The notes below the pieces were generated by a model. The model saw only the letters and a program-made list of their open reading frames with translations, ran no database searches and was not told the DNA's origin. This document shows, in pieces, positions 35,781-64,000 of a DNA stretch of 64,000 nt. Position 1 is the stretch's first letter, and each line of letters opens with the position of its first letter. The DNA is from Lama guanicoe (taxonomy: Eukaryota): NCBI GenBank assembly GCA_013239625.1, contig MU053431.1:744001-808000 (forward strand). The letters run 5' to 3'. Made by a program: the position numbers and the translations under genes.

Positions 35781-37799
35781 CTGCTGCCTCGTATTTCAGA
35801 CCGTCTCCTCCTTCCTCCCAGTGTATCCTCACTGCCTCATTCACAGCAAGTCTGATAAACCAATGCTCTCTGCTGGACTTGAATCAGTTACTGCAGTGTG
35901 TCTGAAAATGTGAGTTCCCAAAGACATCATATGCTGTGTACACGGGCTTCCTCCAGACAGTGAGATCGGGAAATGCTCCCCAGGCCAGGAGCACAGGGCC
36001 CGGGTGGGAACACTGGTGCTGAAGTCCACTCCCCCTCCTGCCCTGGCGAGCGTTGGCGGTGATAACAGACCCTGTCGTGGCATCAGGATGGCTCTGCGAG
36101 TTACTGCACACGAAGCTCCACCTTGTGCATCGCCCAAGGCTGGTGGTTGTCAGGAAAGCGCACCTGGTCTGCAAGTCACCTCGAGCTTCGGGAGCGTCAA
36201 GGTTCTGGGACACTCAGTGGTAGGAAGCGTGGTGCCGAGTCTCCTCCAGTCTTTGGGTCTCAGGACGCCCCACTCAACACCATTTAAAACAATTCCATTT
36301 GGCATGCATGTTTGCACCGAGCAGTTTCAGGGAGGCTGGCAGAGCAGGTGCTGGGTGCTGGGATCGCCCTCCTGGGAAACACTCCATATCACGCTCAGGC
36401 CTCTGGAGACAAGGGCGCGTTCCAGCCCCGGACATTTCAGGACAATAGCGAGGACCTGGGCTGGCCCCTCTTAGCTCCCTTGGCAGTGATGAAGTCCTCT
36501 GAGCAAGGGGAGAGTCTGAAGGGTCTCTGAGAGGTGTCAGCACACTGCTGAGGAATGGAGTCCCCAGCATGGGATCTGGGTGAATCTGGCCACGAAACCT
36601 CACTGGTGACACAGGATCTGTGCTGAGTCTGAACATAAAGATGGGCCAGGCACATTCAGCCACTTACAGGGTCACCCTGCTCCTCTCCCATCAGCCTGGG
36701 AATGGGCAATGCTCGGGCTGGGTGTGACAGGCCGGTACTGATCCAGTGTCCCCTTTAGTTGTCTCACAGTGACTGGGTGAAAAACCCAAAGTCGCCCCAT
36801 GATCTTGGATACATCACTTACCCTGCCCATCCTGAGTTCTCTAAAGTCTGATTTCCTGAAGTCCAAGGCAGCAGGCTGACCGGCGGGCTGCCCCGCCCCT
36901 GTGCAAGGGTTCTGGGTAGGATGGGTGGGGGCTGGGCCACAGCTTTCCTGCCCTCCTGCCCGAGCTGGCTCTGGCCTGGGCTCAGCAGTTCACTCAGTCT
37001 TCATCCCCTCCTTTGCAGCGTATCTCTTAAACCAGAACTAATGTATTCTGGACACAGAGCTCTCCAAACCAAGACAAAGAAAACCTGAAATATCTGAGCA
37101 AACACCACCACTTCTCTTTACATCTCCAAGCCAGACGAGAAGGAGCAGGAACAGCCACTCCCTTTCCAAGCTGTACGTATTTCTCACTTGATGATCCCTT
37201 AGAGAAGTGTCCCCCCAGTTCAGAAATCGCCCAAGCGGGGACATGGAGCCGCCCGCCTGCGGGCGACATTCCTGACAGCTCTTCACGGTGGGCGTCTCTG
37301 CCTTTCCCTTCCCGGGGCCTCTAATTTCCTTCTTGGCTTCTCAGGCCTAACACTATTCTGATGCACAGATCAGCATTAGCCCCTTCCCGGTCCTTAAGGG
37401 CGTATCACAGCCCGGGGCCCAGACCTGGACCGTCCTGTGCCCTGTGGGTCTATGCCGCCTGCTGACGAACCGCAGCCCTGGTCCCCTCTGCTCTTCCCGG
37501 TTGGCTAGTCTCTGAAGGGGAACTCCTGACAGACCCAAAGCAGTGCAAGACCGGGAGGTGGGCCTGGGTCAGGGGGTCAGTGGGAAGACCCTTGAAACAT
37601 ACAGGACAGATGGGTGTGCCCACCCCCACTGTGGGCCAAGGCAGGAAGTTGGACCTAGGCAACAGGGGCTTCCTACCCAGAAGGGGCACCCAGGGTTTGG
37701 GAGCTGGGACCCCTGCGCCTTGTTCAGTCTTCACGACCCCCACCCTTCCACTTCTCCCCTGTAGAACATGGGTGCCAGATGCCCTGTCCCGGCCGGGTG

Positions 37800-37920
37800 G
37801 TGCGGCGGAGCGAGGCGGAGGGGCGCGGGCGCGAGGGGCTCGGGTGCGGCGCGGGGGGCGCGGCGCCTTTAAGGCCCGCGTCAGGCCGGGCTGCGGGGCG
37901 GGGCTTCGGCGGGGCCGCCG
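37800..37920 (+). promoter_or_regulatory. Putative CDH4 core promoter: TATA-like TTTAA (37868-37872) flanked by GC boxes and G-runs
   Basis: GCCTTTAAGGC is the only AT patch in the GC-rich block. GGGGCGGGG (Sp/KLF box) lies at ~37895, with several G-runs upstream. It sits ~200 nt 5' of the exon 1 coding part. The TSS is inferred, not observed. Confidence 0.55.
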
Positions 37921-38064
37921 CGCCGCTTCACCTGCAGTTCCGAGCGCGAGGAACAGAGGCGCGGGCGGCTGTGAGGCCGGCGGACGCACCGGCCCGAGGG
38001 AGCGCGCCGCCGGCCCGACTTGGCCTCGCTCCCGGAGCACGGCGGCGGTCGCGGCATCGCAGCC

Positions 38065-38121
38065 TGAACCCGGGGCTCCGGCGTGCTCCTCGTCCTGCTC
38101 TCGCTCTCCGGCGCGCTCCGG
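38065..38121 (+). CDS. CDH4: Cadherin-4 (R-cadherin) exon 1 coding part, signal peptide; start codon not intact in this sequence
   Basis: Reads *-T-R-G-S-G-V-L-L-V-L-L-S-L-S-G-A-L-R followed by a consensus donor CGG|GTAAGT (intron starts 38122). Matches the human CDH4 N-terminus as I recall it (MTAGAGVLLLLLSLSGALR, 57 coding nt, phase 0). The codon-1 position 38065-38067 is TGA rather than ATG. Confidence 0.9.
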
Positions 38122-40309
38122 GTAAGTTGCAGCCACCCGCCCCGGCCTTTCGGAAGCCCGGGAAGCGCGGGGCCGCCCCCGGAGCTGGCAGGGCGCGCAC
38201 TCGCCCGGCGGGGCTCTCCGGGGCTGCCCCCGCCGCGCGCACCGCTGCATCCAGCCGGCTCCCGCGCTCCGCGAAGCCGCCTGCGGTCGGCAGAAGCGCA
38301 GAGCCGCCGGCTTAGCGGGGAGCGGCGGTGCGGAGAGAGGTGGGAGTGTGGGTGGAGGATGCAGGGAGATCTGCCCGAGGCGGGACTCGCTGAGCATCCC
38401 TCAGCCGCCCTAGGTCCGCGGCCGCTGCCCGGAGCTCGGCTCGCCCGCGCCAGGACAGGCTGCCCGCTAGCGGAGCCGGCGCGCCCTCCATCGCCCGCTC
38501 GCCGCGCTCCTCCGGAGTTGGCGAGCCCAGCCCGGGTTGGGGCTGCAAACGAGGGGAGCTGGCGGCAGCGGACTGGACATCAGGGTGCTGGGGACAACCT
38601 GTCTGGCCTCCGCTGCTAGGGGCTGAGTGCTCCTGAAGCGGCGCCCCCTCCATCCGTGTCCTCTGTGTGCTGGCTGGGACGCCGCTGCGGGTGGGCAGTG
38701 AATATGGACCGCGGGGCACCCTCGCCGCCTACTCCCCGAGGCGTAGGCTGCAGCCGGTGTCCAGCGGGGCCCTCGGCGCGCGGAGCGGGGCCGGGGAGCC
38801 AGGCGCCAGGCAGGCGCAGGGTGAGGTGCAGCCGAGAGCGCGATCCGGGCGCCCGCATTCTTCCTGCGGAGCCCCGCGAGCTCGGTCCCCTGCCCTGCTC
38901 TGAGCCCGCTGGGTGCAGGGCCGAGGGGCAGCGTGAGGGCTGCTCCCGGGGGCGCCCCTGGAGGAAGGCGGAGGGGCGGCGAGAGTTGCAGGAACCCCCT
39001 CTCGTGGCCGATCGGCCTCGCTGCTCTTCCCGGGCCGCGCTGTTGTAACCTCGGAAATAAACAAGTGCCGCGGCCAGAGGCCCGCTCTGAGGACGCGGGG
39101 CGCTCCGGTGCGCTCGACCCACGCCCGGGGCGGGTGGAAACTTTCCTTGGCGAGTTAGCTTCCCCCGGGCTTCGGTCCTATTTGGAGCTTCGCTCCCGGG
39201 GCACGGAACCGCAGCTTGGAGCTTTATCCTAGGAATGACCCCGCGCCCTGCTCTTCCTCCCCGCGGTGCTTTTTGGTGGGGGAGCCACGTCTGGGCCGGC
39301 GTCAGGGTGCCGGGAGCTCCAGGCTGGGGCGGCCTCCGGAGCCGGAGACGAAGGCAGGCGGGCGGCGGCGCGCTGAGCTGGAGGAGGCGGGCGGCAGCGT
39401 GGAAGCGCGTTCCGCTCGGCAGCCCCGCGAAGGCGCGACTGCAGGGTGCGGGCTGCGCCCCTTCTCCCTGTGATCGCCTGGGAGCGGAGCCGTCTTGCTC
39501 CCTCTCCTGTCTTGCGGCTGGCTTCCTTGTTGCAAATGCAGTCTCTCCCTCCACTCCCCATCCCTGCACGGTGGACCTGCAGCCTGGGAGGGGGCCCTTG
39601 GCCCACCTCCCCCCTTCCCTGCCCTCCTGGTGCCCAGAGCTCTAGACCTCCCACTGGGCAGGAAAGCCCAGCGTGCTCTGGAGGACAGGACAGGAGGACA
39701 CCCACCTTTCCCCGTCAGTCAGGGGAGCTCTCTGGCCTGGTTAGGCTGGAGATGGGGGCTCCAAGAAGTGGAGGAAGAGGACTGGAGGGTGGAAACCTCC
39801 CCTGCCTTCCTGCAGCCTCCCTCAGAGCAGAGCTCGGAGCTGAGTCTCCGAGAACCTGACTTCTTGCTCTGCCCCTCTCCTTCCTCCCTGACCACCACAG
39901 GGAGGAGCAGCCTCCTGGTCCACCCCACCCAGCGCCCGGGCACTGGGGCAGAGGTGAAATGGCCCCTCGCAGGAGCCTGCTGCCTTGGCCTCCCCTCCTC
40001 CTCGTCTCCACTGGCTAAGCCCTGGCCCTCCTGCCTCCCCCTGGACAGTCCTCAGACCTTCCTTTCCTCCATGTGTCAAGGCCCTCAGCCTTGTAGTCAG
40101 CTGGCCTGTCCCCTCTGCAGCACCTCCCCCCCTTCAGGAGGACATGGAGACCACGGGGGCGGACCCTGGGTTACGTCTGGGTGGGGCTGTGGCTGATGGA
40201 AGTTTGTCATAGCCTGAGACCTTGCAAGCAACAGGCCCTGCTTAATTTTGGCTGGATGAAATTTCTGTGAACTTTTGTTTGTCCTAACTTCTTTTCATTC
40301 CGTTCTCAG
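38122..40309 (+). other. CDH4: CDH4 intron 1 (2188 bp, GT-AG, phase 0)
   Basis: GTAAGT at 38122 and TTCTCAG ending at 40309, between the two recognised exons. Confidence 0.93.
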
Positions 40310-40421
40310 GCCCACAATGGGGATCTTACAGCCAGGGAGACCTGCAAGGCGGGATTCTCTGAAGAAGATTACACAGCGTTAATCTCCCAGAATATTCTGG
40401 AAGGAGAGAAGGTCCTCAAAG
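40310..40421 (+). CDS. CDH4: Cadherin-4 exon 2 (start of prodomain)
   Basis: Branch-like CTAAC at ~40284, pyrimidine tract and CAG acceptor ending 40309. The 112-nt exon translates [37 protein letters not shown] plus 1 nt, then GTAAGG donor. Closely matches recalled human CDH4 [38 protein letters not shown] and joins exon 1 in frame. Confidence 0.97.
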
Positions 40422-55900: not shown

Positions 55901-58797
55901 CTCACTCAGTTTGTTTATGGGCTGTTATCGGAGTAAAGTGGGGCACGTGGATCTCCGCCTGATGAAATCACCCCCTGGGCCGTGTTGGCTTCAGGTCCCT
56001 GGGCGTAACTGGACAAGGACAGCGACTGCGGTGCAGTTCCGTGCCGGACGGCCTCTCCCTTTGTGCTCTTCGTGCACAGCAGCCCACGGGCGCGCCAGTG
56101 ACACAGGGGCAGGCGGGCGCTCCGGCTCTGGTCCTGGCTTGGAGCTGCGGACGGGGTGCCCATCAGGCCCGGCAGGGGCCCCGCACGTCAGCCCCGCGCG
56201 CTTCTCCGATTCAAAGTCTGTGTTGTGACCTGGGCGAGAGTTGCATCCGTGGCGGACTCCTGCTCAGGGTGCTGCTCGGCTGGTCCAGGCGTCTGCGTGG
56301 CAGGCGGCTCCTCGCTGGGGGTCTGGGGGCCAAGGAGGCCACGGACTGCCTTCTGCTTTGTTTGAAAAATTGTTTGACCTACCCCCCACTCCCTGCCACC
56401 TCCGCCCTTCCCCAGGTAGGCCTGTCTGCCAGCATTATTTCACGGCCGAGAATTGGGTACCTCTGTAAAATTATATTGACCTGAGGGAATTGAGGCCAGA
56501 GGTGCCTGGTGCTTAAACGCGCAGGAATCAAACTGCTTGGCTGATAACATTGTATCGATCCATCTCCCCTCCCTGCTTTGCTGAGCCAGAGGCCTCCCAG
56601 ATGACGTGGTGGTGTTTGGGGGTTGTAGTGGTGCATGGAAGTCCTCATTCTCGATGTTGAAGTGATGTGTTCGTGGCCCGAGGACTGGATCTTCATCGCG
56701 GCTCCCGGTGACGTCAGGCAGCAGCCCCCTGGCCGGGGGCCAGGTGTGGGCAGGGGATGCCTTTCCTTCTGTGTGTGCCGGAGACTCTGTCCTGGGGCTC
56801 GGCCCTCGGGAAGCAGCTCAGGGCTCACAGCTAGTGTTCCCAGAGGAGAACGTTCAAAGTGCAGGAGAAACAGGCAACTGGAAAGGGAATGCGGGGAAGT
56901 GGAGCTGGTCTGTGGGGCGCGCCCTGTCCTCTGGGTACACGGGTCACCTGTCACGCTGCTCTGGACGGGCCCCGTGGGAGGTCGAGGGGCCCACTACTTC
57001 AGGGACCCGAGGCCTTACTTCGGTGAGCTCCACCTCTTAGGCGGGGCTGGCTCTGGATTCCGTTAGAGCCCGGCAGCCAGGAGCCTTCCCTGCGGAGACT
57101 GAACACCAACTTCTGGCCTTTGCCGTGGCAGGTGCCGTGAGAGCCACTGCGGTGACGCAGGGGTGCTGAGTTTGCTGGGGCTTGCTCTGTCTGGGGCTCC
57201 GGCCTTCTCACTCCCAGGGCCGCCCACTCCTGTATTTCTAGGGGTGAGCGGCCCTGTGGCCGTGACTGCCGGCCCGAGAGCGTCCACTGCAGCTGAAGGG
57301 CATCCGCTGCGCTGCAGGCTGCCTCTCCGCCCACGCGCTCGGACCCGCCCTCTGCCCGGGCCTTGCAGCCCCCACGGGCCGCGCCTTCCTCGTCCTGTTC
57401 CACCCCCCGCCCCGCCCCGCCCCGAGCTCCCGCTCCCTCCTGCTCTGCCGGGACCCTCTCCTCCGCTGCTGCAGGGCTTCCTGTCTCAGTGCTCGGCTCC
57501 TGTCCCCTCGCTGGTGGGTCCGGTCCCACTGTCACCCTCCTCCTCCCCCGAGTCCCGTCTGCCCCCTCGGGGCCCTGGTGCTGCCCGGTTCCCCTCACTG
57601 TTACTGTCTCACCCGTCACCCCCCTCTGCCACGTCGTGGTGCCAGGGACACACAGGCCCTGCTCTGGCCGCGCCCCAGGGCCTGGAGCAGGCCGGGGGCA
57701 GAGGACACGCAGTCAGGGCCCATCGCCAAGCAGGTGACAGGTCGTGTCCCTGCTCTGCTCCGATCCTTCCCGACGTCACCCACAGCCCCCTCCTGAGCAA
57801 GTCTGGTGACTGTCACACCCCTCACCCCCCAGTGCAGCTCCCCACGACCCCCTCCCCCAACCCTGTGGCTGGAATCCCTTGGCTCGTCTTCTGTCTGCTC
57901 TCTCTCCCTGGGGAGATCCTACCTGTCCTTGCCTGGGGTGGCAAGTCCACTCCGGAGGCCCCGTCCTCTCCCGGGGGGGCTGGGCCCCCATGTCCTATGC
58001 CCCTTGGCAGGTACGACTGCTGGGGCTGTGCTGCGGCTCAGCCAGGGGAGGCCAGCAACTGGACCTCCCGTCCGCCCAGTGCACCTGCTGGGGTCAGTCA
58101 CCCCCGGGTGCTGTCCTCCTGAGTGGGGGAAGGGCCCTGCCCACCAAGGCTGGACCCTGGGTGCCCCCACAGCCCCCAGGGCCGGGCTCCCTGCTTCCAG
58201 TTCCCAGACGTGCGGGCAGACTGGGCCTTGGTGTGGAAATTCCCAATCCTGTAACCTTCCGGGAGCCAGGCAAGCACAGCAGGTCTCTGGGCCGAATCTC
58301 AGGCCAACAGTCCATGACTCGGTTCCAGTCGGTTTTAAGTAACAGGCGATGCATTGAGGCCAGCGCGTGTGTGAGTCTGGGACTCCCTTGTCCAGCTCGA
58401 CTGCTGGGTAGGAGGGGACACCTCAATCTGGCCTGCTGGTTGCAAGGAAGAAAACCTCCTTGGGGACCGGGCCTGGCATCTTTAAAACAGGGCTCCGTGC
58501 CGACCAGAGGCCAGAGGAGGGCCCAGTGGACAGCAGGGCTCTGGGCCTCCAAGGCGGGGCTGGAGACCCCTCTGCTCTCCTGCTGGCCATGAGCCTCGAC
58601 CACAGGGGCCAGGTGGGGTGGGGTGTGCGGCCCCTCGAGGCTGAACGCCTAGGGCTGGGCGTGCGGAGGTGAGAGGCTGGTGCAGGTAAGCTGATTTTAA
58701 CTGCACTTTATTCAAAACAGGCTATCGGAGCCTGAAGACGTCCAAAACGTCAGGCTATGCAGTGACCCCCATACTTGGGGTCTGTGAACCCCTGGAA

Positions 58798-58998
58798 GGA
58801 CCCTCGGGGCTCCTACGGCACAGGGTGGGTGGGGAATGAGTCCCGGGGGCCCTCGGGGGGTCCCACAGCATGGGGGGTGGTGAGGAGTGAGTCCCAGGGA
58901 CCCTCGGGGGCTCCCACGGCACGGGGTGGGTGGGGAGTGAGTCCTGAGGACCCTGGGGGGCTCCCACATTGGAAGGAGGGTGGGGAGTGAGTCCAGAG
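58798..58998. repeat. G-rich minisatellite, ~50-bp unit, 4 copies
   Basis: Unit approximately GACCCTCGGGGGCTCCCACGGCACGGGGTGGGTGGGGAGTGAGTCCCAGG, repeated four times with substitutions. Confidence 0.9.
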
Positions 58999-60089
58999 TC
59001 GGGACAGCAGCTGTCCAGTAAGCTCTCACCCAACATCAGCGCTTCGGGTGGCCGCCGGGAGGCCCTTATTCTTGCGAACCTCGCTTTTTCCCAGAGGAAG
59101 CCAGCTCCAGACGTGGAGCAAGAGCTTAACAGCATTATGTTGCTCTCACTGCGCTTACTTGCAAGCACAGGGTGAGGCAGTGTCACAAGTTCCCCTTTTA
59201 AACGCATGTGCTCCGTAAAACAAAAGCCTCGCTGGGCCCAGGTGGCAGGCCGGGGTGGCGTGCTGAGCGGCGTCCGCGTGCGAGGTGCGCGCTTGCCGCC
59301 CTGGGGAGGGGCCCGCAGCCAGCACGCCCACGGCACCTGCCCGGCCCCGCCACCGTCCCTCCCCAGGGGCCGCATCCAGGTGAGAGCTCGCACCCTCGTG
59401 CCGCGCCCAGTGTTCCTGACGGTTGCTTCCCTTTGTGGTAGGTTTACTGTTTTCCCTGGTGATGAAATGTTTCCCATGGGAGTCGTGAAGGTTGTAAGGA
59501 AAATGGGAGGGAAAAGGGTAAGATGGTCCACAGACGGGGCAGAGAGCCTGGGCTGGGCCGGCTGTGGACAGAGCTGCGCGGGGGCTCTCTCGTCTCCTCT
59601 CTCGCCCGAGGCTCAGAGCTGGCAGCACGTTCTGACCCAGAGCCTGCGGTGGGCGGGGGTCTCCCTCCCAGCCCGGTGCCATCACCAGTGTGAGGCCAGG
59701 CAGAGACCCAGGCGAGCTCCGTGTGCACCTGTCACCCCCCCAGGGCCGCACCAGGGATCCTGGGGGGTCCGCACTGCCAGCACCAAAGCCTGAGGGGACA
59801 CACCCCGGAAGCTGTGCGTCCGTGGATGGGGACCCCATTGTCTCCCAGTCAGCCAGCCTGCCTGCTAACATTGAACACAGAAACAGCACACTGGCTGCGC
59901 CTGCAGGCTCAGCGAGCTGTCCCCGCTCGGCACCCATTCGGATGTTCGTCTGAAAATCCCGGCTGCTGTGGAGAGAGCCGCGTGGAGGAGGGGCCGGCCC
60001 AGGGCGGGAGGTCGCCCCGGGCACGCGTCAGGTGCGACGGCTTCTGTTTCAGAACCATCTACCTTTCGTCTCTCTCTTACTTCAATAGA

Positions 60090-61060
60090 TCATTTTGTAT
60101 TTTTAAAGTGCCGAACAATTTACTTTTGAAAACTTGAAATACAGAGAAATGTGAAAAGAATAAATCAGTGCAATTTTGTCTCCCTCCCCCGTACAACCAC
60201 TTTTAACCATTTGGCACACCTGGCATGTGTGTGTGTGTGTGTGTGTACGTGTGCATAGGGGGGCATGTGCCCATGTGCATAAGCTTGTGTAGGTGTGGTG
60301 TGTTACCACGTGGGCACACACGTGTGGTATGCAGTCACGTGGGCACACTTGTGTGTTGCACGCACCTGTGTCAAGTGTGTGAGTGTGGTGCGTGCACGCA
60401 TGGGTGGTATGTGTGCATACCACTTGTATGCACACACATGTGCTAATGTATGTGTGTGTGGCGAGCGTTCACGTGCACACGGGTGTTGTGAGAGTGGTGC
60501 ATGCATGCACAAAAGCATGTGAGTGTGTGTGTGCATATGTGCAGACACATGGCTGCACAGACGTGCATGCGTGTGGAACGTGTGCATGTGGTGGGCCTGC
60601 GCCGTGGAGGGACAGAAGGACATTTCCAGTTCTCTGCTGCTGAAAATGACGGATGCCGTGAAGAAAATCTACACACGTGCATCTTAGGGCACATTTCTCA
60701 TTGTGAGAAGCAGAATTCAGAAACGTGTTCCCGAGGCCATGCGGGCCTGGATCTGCGTGTCTAAAGGATGCTTCAGGGGGGAGGTGGCCATTTACGTTCC
60801 CAGCCAGAACTTCGGAGACGCCGGGGTTCCCGTGCCTCCTTCGTACACGGCTGTTCTTTTAAAGACATTTTCCAGTCTGACAGGTGTAAGAGAGCATCGT
60901 TTAATCGTGCATTTATTTAATTAGAGCGGCTGGGAATTTTTCTAAATTTGCCATTCCTCCCCATGTTTTCTTGTGCAAATTGTGTGTCCATATTTGTCAG
61001 TTTTTCTCTCTCGGGGTGACTGGAGTGGCCTCGTATGAAAACAGATTCATCTGGAAGAAA
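60090..61060 (-). mobile_element. Ancient L1ME-like 3' end interrupted by a TG-rich repeat
   Basis: aaccacttttaaccatttgg, tttccagttctctgctg, ccatttacgttcccagccag and tttccagtctgacaggtg...tgcatttatttaatta. Confidence 0.6.
60222..60592. repeat. (TG)n and degenerate (TGCA/CACG/CATG) alternating purine-pyrimidine tract
   Basis: tgtgtgtgtgtgtgtgtgtgtacgtgtgcata...gtgcatgcatgcacaaaagcatgtgagtgtgtgtgtgcatatgtg. Confidence 0.9.
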
Positions 61061-61233
61061 TCTGACCTCTGTCTTCAACCTACAAACCCGACTTGGGTTT
61101 CTGTTAGTCCTGTCACCACTGAGATCCCTCAGGAAAGTTTTGTAACTTTTTTCAAGTAGTTTTGGTGTATTCTTAGAGTTTGTCCCTACGCGCTTAACAC
61201 GTGCTCTTGTGTGAGGAGTGTCTGCAGGGCGGC

Positions 61234-61259
61234 GGTGCTGGTGCTGGTGCTGGTGCTGG
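61234..61259. repeat. (GGTGCT)4 hexamer repeat
   Basis: ggtgctggtgctggtgctggtgctgg. Confidence 0.85.
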
Positions 61260-61411
61260 GCGCAAGCTGTTCATCTAGGGACCGTGGTTTGTACGACTAA
61301 GTAAGCAGAGCCCATCCAGACTGGCTGAAGCCCCAGCACAGATTCTTTGAGAGGCAGTGGGGTTTTCTGAAGGCCTGGAATCCAGCACTGAAATTTAAGG
61401 CTGCCAGGATG

Positions 61412-61620
61412 AGGCATGGGGAAGCCTTTTCTGTAAAGGGCCAGAGAACGGTTATTTTAGGCTTTGCAGGATAGGTCTGGTGGGGCCTGCTCACCTCGGC
61501 TGCTGCAGCACGAAAGTGGCCGTAGACAACTGGGGACGAATGGGGCAGCTGTGTGCCAGGGAGACTCTGCTTACAGCAGAGGCTGCAGGTTGGAGTTGAC
61601 CCCACACAGAGCCCCCGCTT
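61412..61620. mobile_element. MER58A-like hAT-Charlie element
   Basis: ttttctgtaaagggccaga...tattttaggctttgcagg...tgcagcacgaaagtggccgtagacaa...gaatggggcagctgtgtgcca. Confidence 0.85.
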
Positions 61621-61724
61621 TCTGCTTCTCTATGACTCTCCCATCTTCATGTTCCTAGTTTTCTGTGCATGTGGAGGAAAACTGTTCCTGGTTGAGAACC
61701 ATTGCTCTGAATGCATTACTCTTT

Positions 61725-61835
61725 AGCCCTCATAGCAACGTTATGAAGCTTGGCGTTATGGCCCCATTTGACAGATGGGGAGACTGAGGCCAGCAAGATG
61801 CCACAGCCAAGGTCAGGGAGCTTATAACCCACGTC
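61725..61835. mobile_element. MIR fragment
   Basis: ccccatttgacagatggggagactgaggcc...ccaaggtca. Confidence 0.7.
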
Positions 61836-62370
61836 GGCCTGACAAGCACTGTGGCCGTGTGAGTGCAGTTCAGAGTTGGGTCAGAGCCCACGGCATGTGC
61901 CTGCAGGGTGCAGTCCCCGCGTCCCAGGGACCCGAAAAGAGGAGGCAGAGGAGGCAGGAACACAGAGGACTGGGCCCTTCCAGTGCTGCCAGGAGCATTT
62001 TCTGCTGGGCATTAATAATGCCACCACCACCACGGTCACAGTAAAGGAAGATGAGGGAAATGAACACTTGCTGGCTGGTGTGTTCAGTGCTCAGCGCAGT
62101 GATCTGCTCCCACGGGGCTGGAGTTAAGAGTGGACGGCTCCTCGCCGCCGGTGAGCTCTGCTGGCCCCAGACAAGGACCCCGAGATGGGGGCTCCGCAGA
62201 CCCCGGCTCCAGGCGGCCATGCTCCGCCTCACTGGAGGGGCCCGCGCTCCTGCCGGGGGCCTGGGCGTGGACCTCCCGGGGCGGCCGCTGGGCCGGGTGC
62301 AGCCCGTGCTCCCGGGGCCAGACGCCTGCGGCCTCCCGAGGGGCCTCCACCCTCTGCATCTGGGGCTGGC

Positions 62371-62467
62371 GGGTCCGCCGGGGTCAGGCGGGGTCAGCCG
62401 GGGTCAGCGCCAGGGCAGGGCAGCCGGGGTCAGCCGGGGTCAGGCGGGGTCAGCCGGGGTCAGAGCC
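62371..62467 (+). repeat. 10-bp tandem repeat (GGGTCAGSCG)n in two blocks
   Basis: GGGTCA at 62381, 62391, 62401, 62427, 62437, 62447 and 62457. Confidence 0.92.
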
Positions 62468-64000
62468 AGGCCAGAGCAGCCATGTTGAGCTGAGGAGGCA
62501 GTTCAGCGGCGGCTGAGAGACCTGAAGGGACCTCGGGTGCTCGGGCTGGCGGCCAGTGGAGGGAAATGCTGTCCGTCACCTGCCTTCCGATGCTCCGTCA
62601 AGGGAGCCGAAGTGAGAAGCGAGAGGGTCTCCGTCCCCTCAGACCAGCCGGCCACCCGAGCGGCCGCGGCCGGGGCCCCACCCGCCACGGGCCGGATGTG
62701 CAGCCGCTTCCCGCCCCGCGCAGGCTACCCGCTCCCACCAGTCTCCCTGGGAGGAAAGCCCCTCTTGCTGCAGCTTCGGGGGAACGAGCGGGCGGAGGTG
62801 GGAAGCGCGCCCTGCGGACTGGGTGGGGGCCCAGGACACCTCCAGAGCTGGTGTCGCGGGGATCCCCCCCCCCGAGTCTCCGGCGGCTCGGCGGTCACTT
62901 GCTGGGGGACGACGTCAGTCCTGGTGACCGCTGCGCATGGGTCCCCACCTGCTGTATCTGGACCCTGTGTGACGGACACTCACCCCAGGTTTGATGTCAA
63001 GCGGGCCAGTCGGAGGACGGAAAAATGAAAGGCAGAAAAGCGCCATGTAAACAGGGCGGAGGTCGGATTTCCCCACGGCGCTTCCAGAAAGTTGGGATTG
63101 CTGACTAGTTAATTTTGGTGGGACTCGAGCCCAAGGATCTACTTGCCCTGGACTCCGGGCGCCGCCCTCGGGGAGCCTCAGTCTTCTCTGTGAATTGAGG
63201 TAAGAATCCAGCCGCCTCGGAATGTCCTGACGTGTAGGGAGAGCCTGGGTGGCGGCGACCTTGCGCGTACATGGCAGGCTGGGGTGTGTCACTCAGCCCC
63301 CCGTGGCTCTTTTTGGAAATAACCACAGTCCAGGGCACGGATGGGGGTGCCGTGAACCCCTTCATGCCCCACAGTGGCGTGGTGTTCTCAGGGGACACCG
63401 CCTCCCTCCTGCTCCCTCGTGGGGCATCCCCGTGCGGGTCAGAGCTTGGGGTCAGCGGGCCATCACAGGCTCGAGGCCTGGGCACGCTCAGGACCTGCCT
63501 CACGTGCAGCCCCCTGCGCTCACTGGGGACCCAGCACCACTCCAGGCCCAGGTGTGCACCCTTGGGTCCAGCCAGCCGCCCGGCAGGAGCGGTTCTGATC
63601 AGTCCCACACACGGCGTCCCGTGTGGAGGCATGACCATGACCCGGGCCCTGGTTTCTGGGGTGGAAGACAGTCCAGGAGCCAAGATGCATGAAGATGCCC
63701 CGACCCAGGTGCCTGTGGTCACTCTGCCCCGACCCACATCTCCAGGGAAATGAATGCTTTGCTGTGCGTCCTGGTGGCTGACAGTCAGCGTCATGGCTTT
63801 TCACGCAGTGAGAGAAAAATGACAACCCGCAGAATGTGGAAGGACAGTGATCAGCCTTTAATTGTACTTATCCAAGTCCATTTGGTGAAAGACGCTGCTG
63901 GCGTATTTTTATTCTCACAGTTTTGCTTTTCCCGAGTAGAAGCGTCCCTCGGTGGGGTCCTCTGGTTTCCTGTTCCCAGAAAGTCTCCTCTAGTAGGATG

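Follow-up and report, generated by a model that had tools for sequence, protein, structure and literature searches.

Does CDH4, a conserved adhesion gene, begin without a start codon in this genome? In the window (the whole stretch of DNA analyzed, 64,000 nt) the exon that should carry the initiator is read in frame by counting back from the splice donor at 38122, and codon 1 then falls on TGA at 38065-38067; the exon-1 frame runs TGA ACC CGG GGC TCC GGC GTG, translated as a stop followed by TRGSGVLLVLLSLSGALR. The exon ends at 38121 with the intron 1 donor GTAAGT directly 3' of it (38122-38127, plus strand). Codons 2-19, which encode the signal peptide (38068-38121, plus strand), are intact, as is exon 2 (40310-40421, plus strand; 112 nt, bounded by AG and GT, with an open frame), where the cadherin prodomain starts. 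Between 37779 and 38359, the two ATGs flanking exon 1, the plus strand has no ATG; within this interval lies a TATA-like TTTAA (37868-37872, plus strand), a putative promoter element identified from sequence only. The initial annotation had described the locus as CDH4 exon 1 with TGA at codon 1, no ATG from the TATA-like element to the donor, and an intact signal core, donor and exon 2. The frame count, the ATG scan and the orthologue matches of codons 2-19 and exon 2 bear out all of this, and the positions it gave for TTTAA (37868), a GGGG (38072-38075) and an in-frame GTG (38083) are correct.

No upstream ATG rescues the frame: the one at 37768 shares the coding frame, which meets a stop short of exon 1, and those at 37779 and 37610 are in frames other than the coding one. 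Duplication of exon 1, or its presence on a haplotig, is ruled out, since this stretch is single-copy in the assembly (G000, contig C866). The first AUG of the spliced exon 1+2 message, at 40317, opens a +1 frame of 21 codons (40317-40382, plus strand); it has A at -3 and G at +4, and its stop lies within exon 2. The only repeats between 38016 and 38400 are short GC-rich pairs, with one 9-base inverted match (38068-38076 with 38115-38123). As a separate observation, no stop interrupts the frame of exon 1 for 183 codons, well into intron 1 (38068-38619), and similar read-through frames are predicted on the contigs of other mammals; this open frame is probably a by-product of high GC.

Downstream of its start, the gene is that of other mammals. 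Codons 2-19 and exons 2-16 match CDH4/R-cadherin of human (P0126), cow (P0048), dromedary (P0001 and P0147) and alpaca (P0021). Exons 3-16 lie at C866:1110160-1246561, and joining exons 1-16 gives codons 2-914, that is 913 codons that run uninterrupted to a terminal stop, with an identity of about 94% to the closest among 50 full-length orthologues. The frame is full-length through the cadherin repeats, the membrane span and the tail, as expected of CDH4, a type I classical cadherin; likewise, the signal peptide is on exon 1 and the prodomain begins with exon 2, and PF08758 is found on the matching dromedary peptide. An old pseudogene is ruled out by the lack of any stop or frameshift in the 913 codons, so that the pseudogene-type changes come down to the loss of the start and a single aberrant donor. 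Canonical splice sites account for 29 of 30 (AG at all 15 acceptors, GT at 14 of the 15 donors). The exception is the donor of exon 5 (C866:1180893, outside the window), which reads CTGAGT where the other 14 begin with GT; in alpaca P0021 the junction between exons 5 and 6 is normal. Compared with mammalian CDH4, which has 914 codons including codon 1, the gene in the window lacks codon 1 and about 130 nt of leader, and it differs further in the CT donor and in an arginine at residue 3 common only to the dromedary model. An initiator ATG and a full set of canonical splice sites, both usual in CDH4, are therefore absent here; apart from its start and one donor, the gene is unremarkable as a CDH4 orthologue.

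At four positions (149, 669, 689 and 714) the residue in G000 is unlike that in any camelid model reaching the position. Three of these private residues, which set G000 apart from the dromedary model, fall in exon 13 (C866:1243099-1243332), where the alpaca model itself has four odd residues; G000 and alpaca differ at six positions in this exon and at none or one in most others. Together with the CT donor of exon 5, these residues fit local base errors, and they also fit early decay. Intron 7 contains two runs of N, of 977 bases at C866:1204945 and of 48 bases at C866:1208312, which may be either gaps or withheld sequence.

The comparison of orthologous first exons that had been proposed in the initial annotation leaves little doubt about what normally stands at codon 1: Met is present in 91 of 91 exon-1-type peptides (from 175 stored proteins, redundant for isoforms and close species), and the difference in the window is therefore not a matter of chance. 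Residue 3 is Ala in 79 of these proteins, Val in 11 and Arg in one. The single Arg3 protein is dromedary P0001 (KAB1262154.1), the sole camelid among the 91, which begins MTRGSGV (peptide MTRGSGVLLVLLSLSSALR); in the window the residue is encoded by CGG at 38071-38073. Their agreement shows Thr-Arg-Gly-Ser to be the camelid sequence after codon 1. The dromedary model is also the top match of exon 2 (identical over the 40-residue query), and its intron read-through differs from the window at two of 57 residues, compared by eye; pieces of the alpaca model derived from the intron match G000 at 96-98%. These matches mark the genome as that of a camelid, and probably as a different assembly from the dromedary one on which P0001 is based. 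In the dromedary model codon 1 reads as Met at the protein level. GenBank, however, prints an initiator CTG as Met, so the dromedary Met is no proof of an ATG. At residue 16 the dromedary model has Ser, in place of the Gly found in cow, pig, human and the window, and the assembly behind it may therefore be imperfect at exon 1 as well. The alpaca (P0021) and wild-camel (P0008) models are without exon 1, which is also missing from the non-camelid models P0004, P0014, P0037 and P0096. Among the cluster members listed (at most 15 per cluster, for clusters of up to 92), none was a camelid CDH4 that is full-length and includes exon 1, and searches of proteins with the frame reading through exon 1 (one of six frames; 4, 7 and 3 matches) returned no camelid frame across the junction.

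What distinguishes the window from its orthologues is more than a codon. The last part of the 5' leader that is collinear with them, ending in GCAGCC, lies at 38041-38064 (plus strand; tblastn with dolphin P0007 and sheep P0073). Between 38064 and codon 2 all 10 of the leader-spanning orthologue models that we measured have 130-165 more bases, and this block, which the initial annotation missed, ends in ATG in the orthologue models. Dolphin P0007, among the tblastn matches listed, aligns up to 38064, continues with 45 extra residues and is collinear again from codon 2. By anchor distance the window is short of dolphin by 135 nt, of goat and sheep (P0073, P0076 and P0083) by 130 nt, of jaguar by 165 nt, and of four contig-derived frames by 130 nt; reindeer P0175 has the same 43 codons as goat across the block. 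Eight of the 10 models thus have a block of 130 nt, one of 135 and one of 165, a count that leaves out P0003, P0108 and P0110, whose models also enter the leader. Because the whole block, ATG included, is absent, the TGA (38065-38067, plus strand) is a junction and not a mutated start codon. The block is absent, its flanks are collinear with the orthologues, and the frame downstream is whole.

The missing sequence is probably very rich in GC. Gly, Ala, Arg and Pro make up 67-75% of the residues when the block is translated, and runs of Arg, Gly or Ala occur according to frame, which suggests a run of GGC-type triplets. It belongs in a CpG island (37750-39500, no strand assigned; GC 0.75, CpG observed/expected 0.92) that spans the CDH4 promoter, exon 1 and the start of intron 1, with 50-base bins reaching 0.86 GC. 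The window contains no N at all, and two orthologue block peptides used as queries found no significant match elsewhere in G000 (best E values 0.17 and 0.23).

We also compared the region with the word content of sequencing runs. Over 37700-38400, 13 DNA runs contain 0.91 of 74 words and one contains 0.88, and among the 24 runs listed none is higher; these 14 runs come from six studies with four organism labels, and they may include duplicates or the source. A share of 0.91 corresponds to seven missing words, which may lie anywhere in 37700-38400. The probability of losing at least seven words is approximately 0.04 for one junction alone and approximately 0.53 for two separate differences. As no run exceeds 0.91, each of them probably departs from the window somewhere in this interval, and a ceiling shared by 13 runs may point to sequence that only this assembly has. 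Placing the seven words by guessed sampling schemes was abandoned: two of 84 schemes gave 74 words, which is chance level, and these two assigned four and two words to the junction. Six RNA runs contain 0.05-0.35 of the words.

The feature at the start of CDH4 is most likely not real. We consider a gap-free mis-join of the assembly across a GC-rich dropout, in other words a false gene loss, to be the probable explanation, the animal's own ATG start likely being normal. Reads would have been lost where the leader is richest in GC, and the sequences on either side of the dropout would then have been closed up without a gap; in a variant of this mechanism, the camelid leader would truly be shorter and keep its ATG, with a few bases wrong at 38065-38067. 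Support comes from the presence of the block in all 10 models and of Met in all 91 proteins, from the intact frame over codons 2-914, and from the GC-richness of the block within its island; the ceiling of 0.91 in 13 runs, which would fit assembly-private sequence, also points this way. Against it stand the junction without an N gap and the failure to find the block elsewhere in G000, the lack of a camelid frame across the junction in the searches with the read-through frame, the seven missing words, a number that one junction alone would seldom reach, the chance that the dromedary Met is a CTG in a model with an odd Ser16, and, in part, the CT donor of exon 5 with the four private residues. 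The consensus error in a GC-rich stretch that the initial annotation favored is still the leading account as far as a sequence error is concerned, but not as a slip of a single base, given that about 130 nt including the ATG are lost.

Cases of this type have been described. In older vertebrate assemblies, 26-60% of genes have some false loss, and sequence is most often missing around the start site, the 5' UTR and the first exon, above all in CpG-island genes (PMC9516821). The locus resembles the false gene losses of that account in that the 5' end of a CpG-island gene is missing while the rest is intact and the orthologues are normal; here, too, the missing sequence belongs to a GC-rich 5' end with a CpG island. 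The same source also counts false disruptions of splice junctions, to which the exon-5 donor is comparable. Unlike the cases in that paper, which were checked against reads or a long-read assembly, the loss here is closed without N or contig break and our case is built from sequence comparison. On this reading the case matters only as a warning: a GC-rich block can vanish from this assembly with no gap to mark it, and the start losses and clean deletions that the assembly seems to show should be backed by reads before they count as losses of genes.

A real deletion in the animal is an unlikely alternative but a consequential one, as it would amount either to a natural camelid CDH4 null or to a switch, throughout the lineage, of a neural and kidney adhesion gene to initiation at CUG. 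For the former, the deletion would be an allele private to the animal or its population that removed the ATG and left the exon-1 message null, perhaps as a first step in the decay of CDH4; we regard this as improbable. It is consistent with the gap-free junction in an N-free window, with the out-of-frame first AUG (40317) in strong context followed by a stop after 21 codons, with the CT donor that stands against 14 GT donors and a normal exon 5-6 join in alpaca, and with the four residues unlike those of the camelid models. A CDH4 null allele could exist, because mice with loss of Cdh4 function are viable, with reduced nephron formation (PMC11463967, citing Dahl 2002). An allele on its way to decay is harder to reconcile with zero stops or frameshifts in 913 codons, and the clustering of three of the four private residues in exon 13, where alpaca is odd too, looks like base error. 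The ceiling of 0.91 in 13 runs speaks against fixation of this version in the species but does not count against a private allele.

The lineage-wide switch appears to us less credible still. Here a deletion of about 130 bases through a 2-base TG overlap would be common to all camelids, the protein would start at CUG (L/M-T-R-G-S), and the extra A of the window would be a one-base error. Trp (TGG) directly follows the GCAGCC anchor in four orthologue models, which places TG at both ends of the block, and removing one A from the window gives L-T-R-G-S-G-V, identical to the dromedary model after residue 1. Only removal of the A does so at the junction; removal of one G, from which the initial annotation had derived a CUG-initiated signal peptide, yields L-N-P-G-S and contradicts the T-R-G-S of dromedary. 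Arg3, which adjoins the junction, in one of 91 proteins and the alpaca and wild-camel models without exon 1 also agree with a deletion shared by camelids, although exon 1 is commonly missing in non-camelid models as well.

Such a switch requires a real deletion, a dromedary Met that is actually CTG, and a separate error in the window. Augustus gene models start at ATG, and P0001 is presumably a product of the MAKER/Augustus dromedary pipeline. That the dromedary GenBank models come from this pipeline (PMC7468183) weighs against a CTG behind the Met. In the literature collection searched, nothing relevant was found on camelid CDH4 or on non-AUG initiation of CDH4. Some mammalian genes do initiate at CUG or GUG, and the junction resembles them in having a CTG that ends one base out of frame and a GTG in frame. 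It differs from them in that, in the assembled sequence, this CTG does not share the coding frame, and a near-cognate start is not conserved (91 of 91 relatives have Met), so that an in-frame near-cognate codon at the start, conserved in relatives, is lacking. Were the shared deletion true, a whole mammalian family would have a non-AUG start of the signal peptide of a classical cadherin, masked because annotation writes Met at that position or supplies a spurious first exon instead.

That the sequence is real as assembled, with protein made from the in-frame GTG (38083-38085, plus strand) or from another first exon, as had also been offered, is very hard to accept: the GTG is indeed in frame with G at -3, but it is disfavored as a start by C at +4, by having only 13 codons left 5' of the donor and by the strong out-of-frame AUG downstream, and human isoforms 2 and 3 (P0130 and P0125), which do start without exons 1-2, have a best 9-residue hydropathy of 1.1-1.8 against 2.9 for the signal peptide and, with no comparable hydrophobic leader, would not rescue a surface cadherin, which leaves the alternative first exon a weak explanation of the missing ATG.

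Elsewhere in the window, the part of intron 2 at 57000-64000 contains GC-rich patches with tandem repeats (a 50-nt unit at 58798-58994; at 62371-62481, units of 10 and 56 nt), and on the minus strand it has three frames that are 229-260 codons long.
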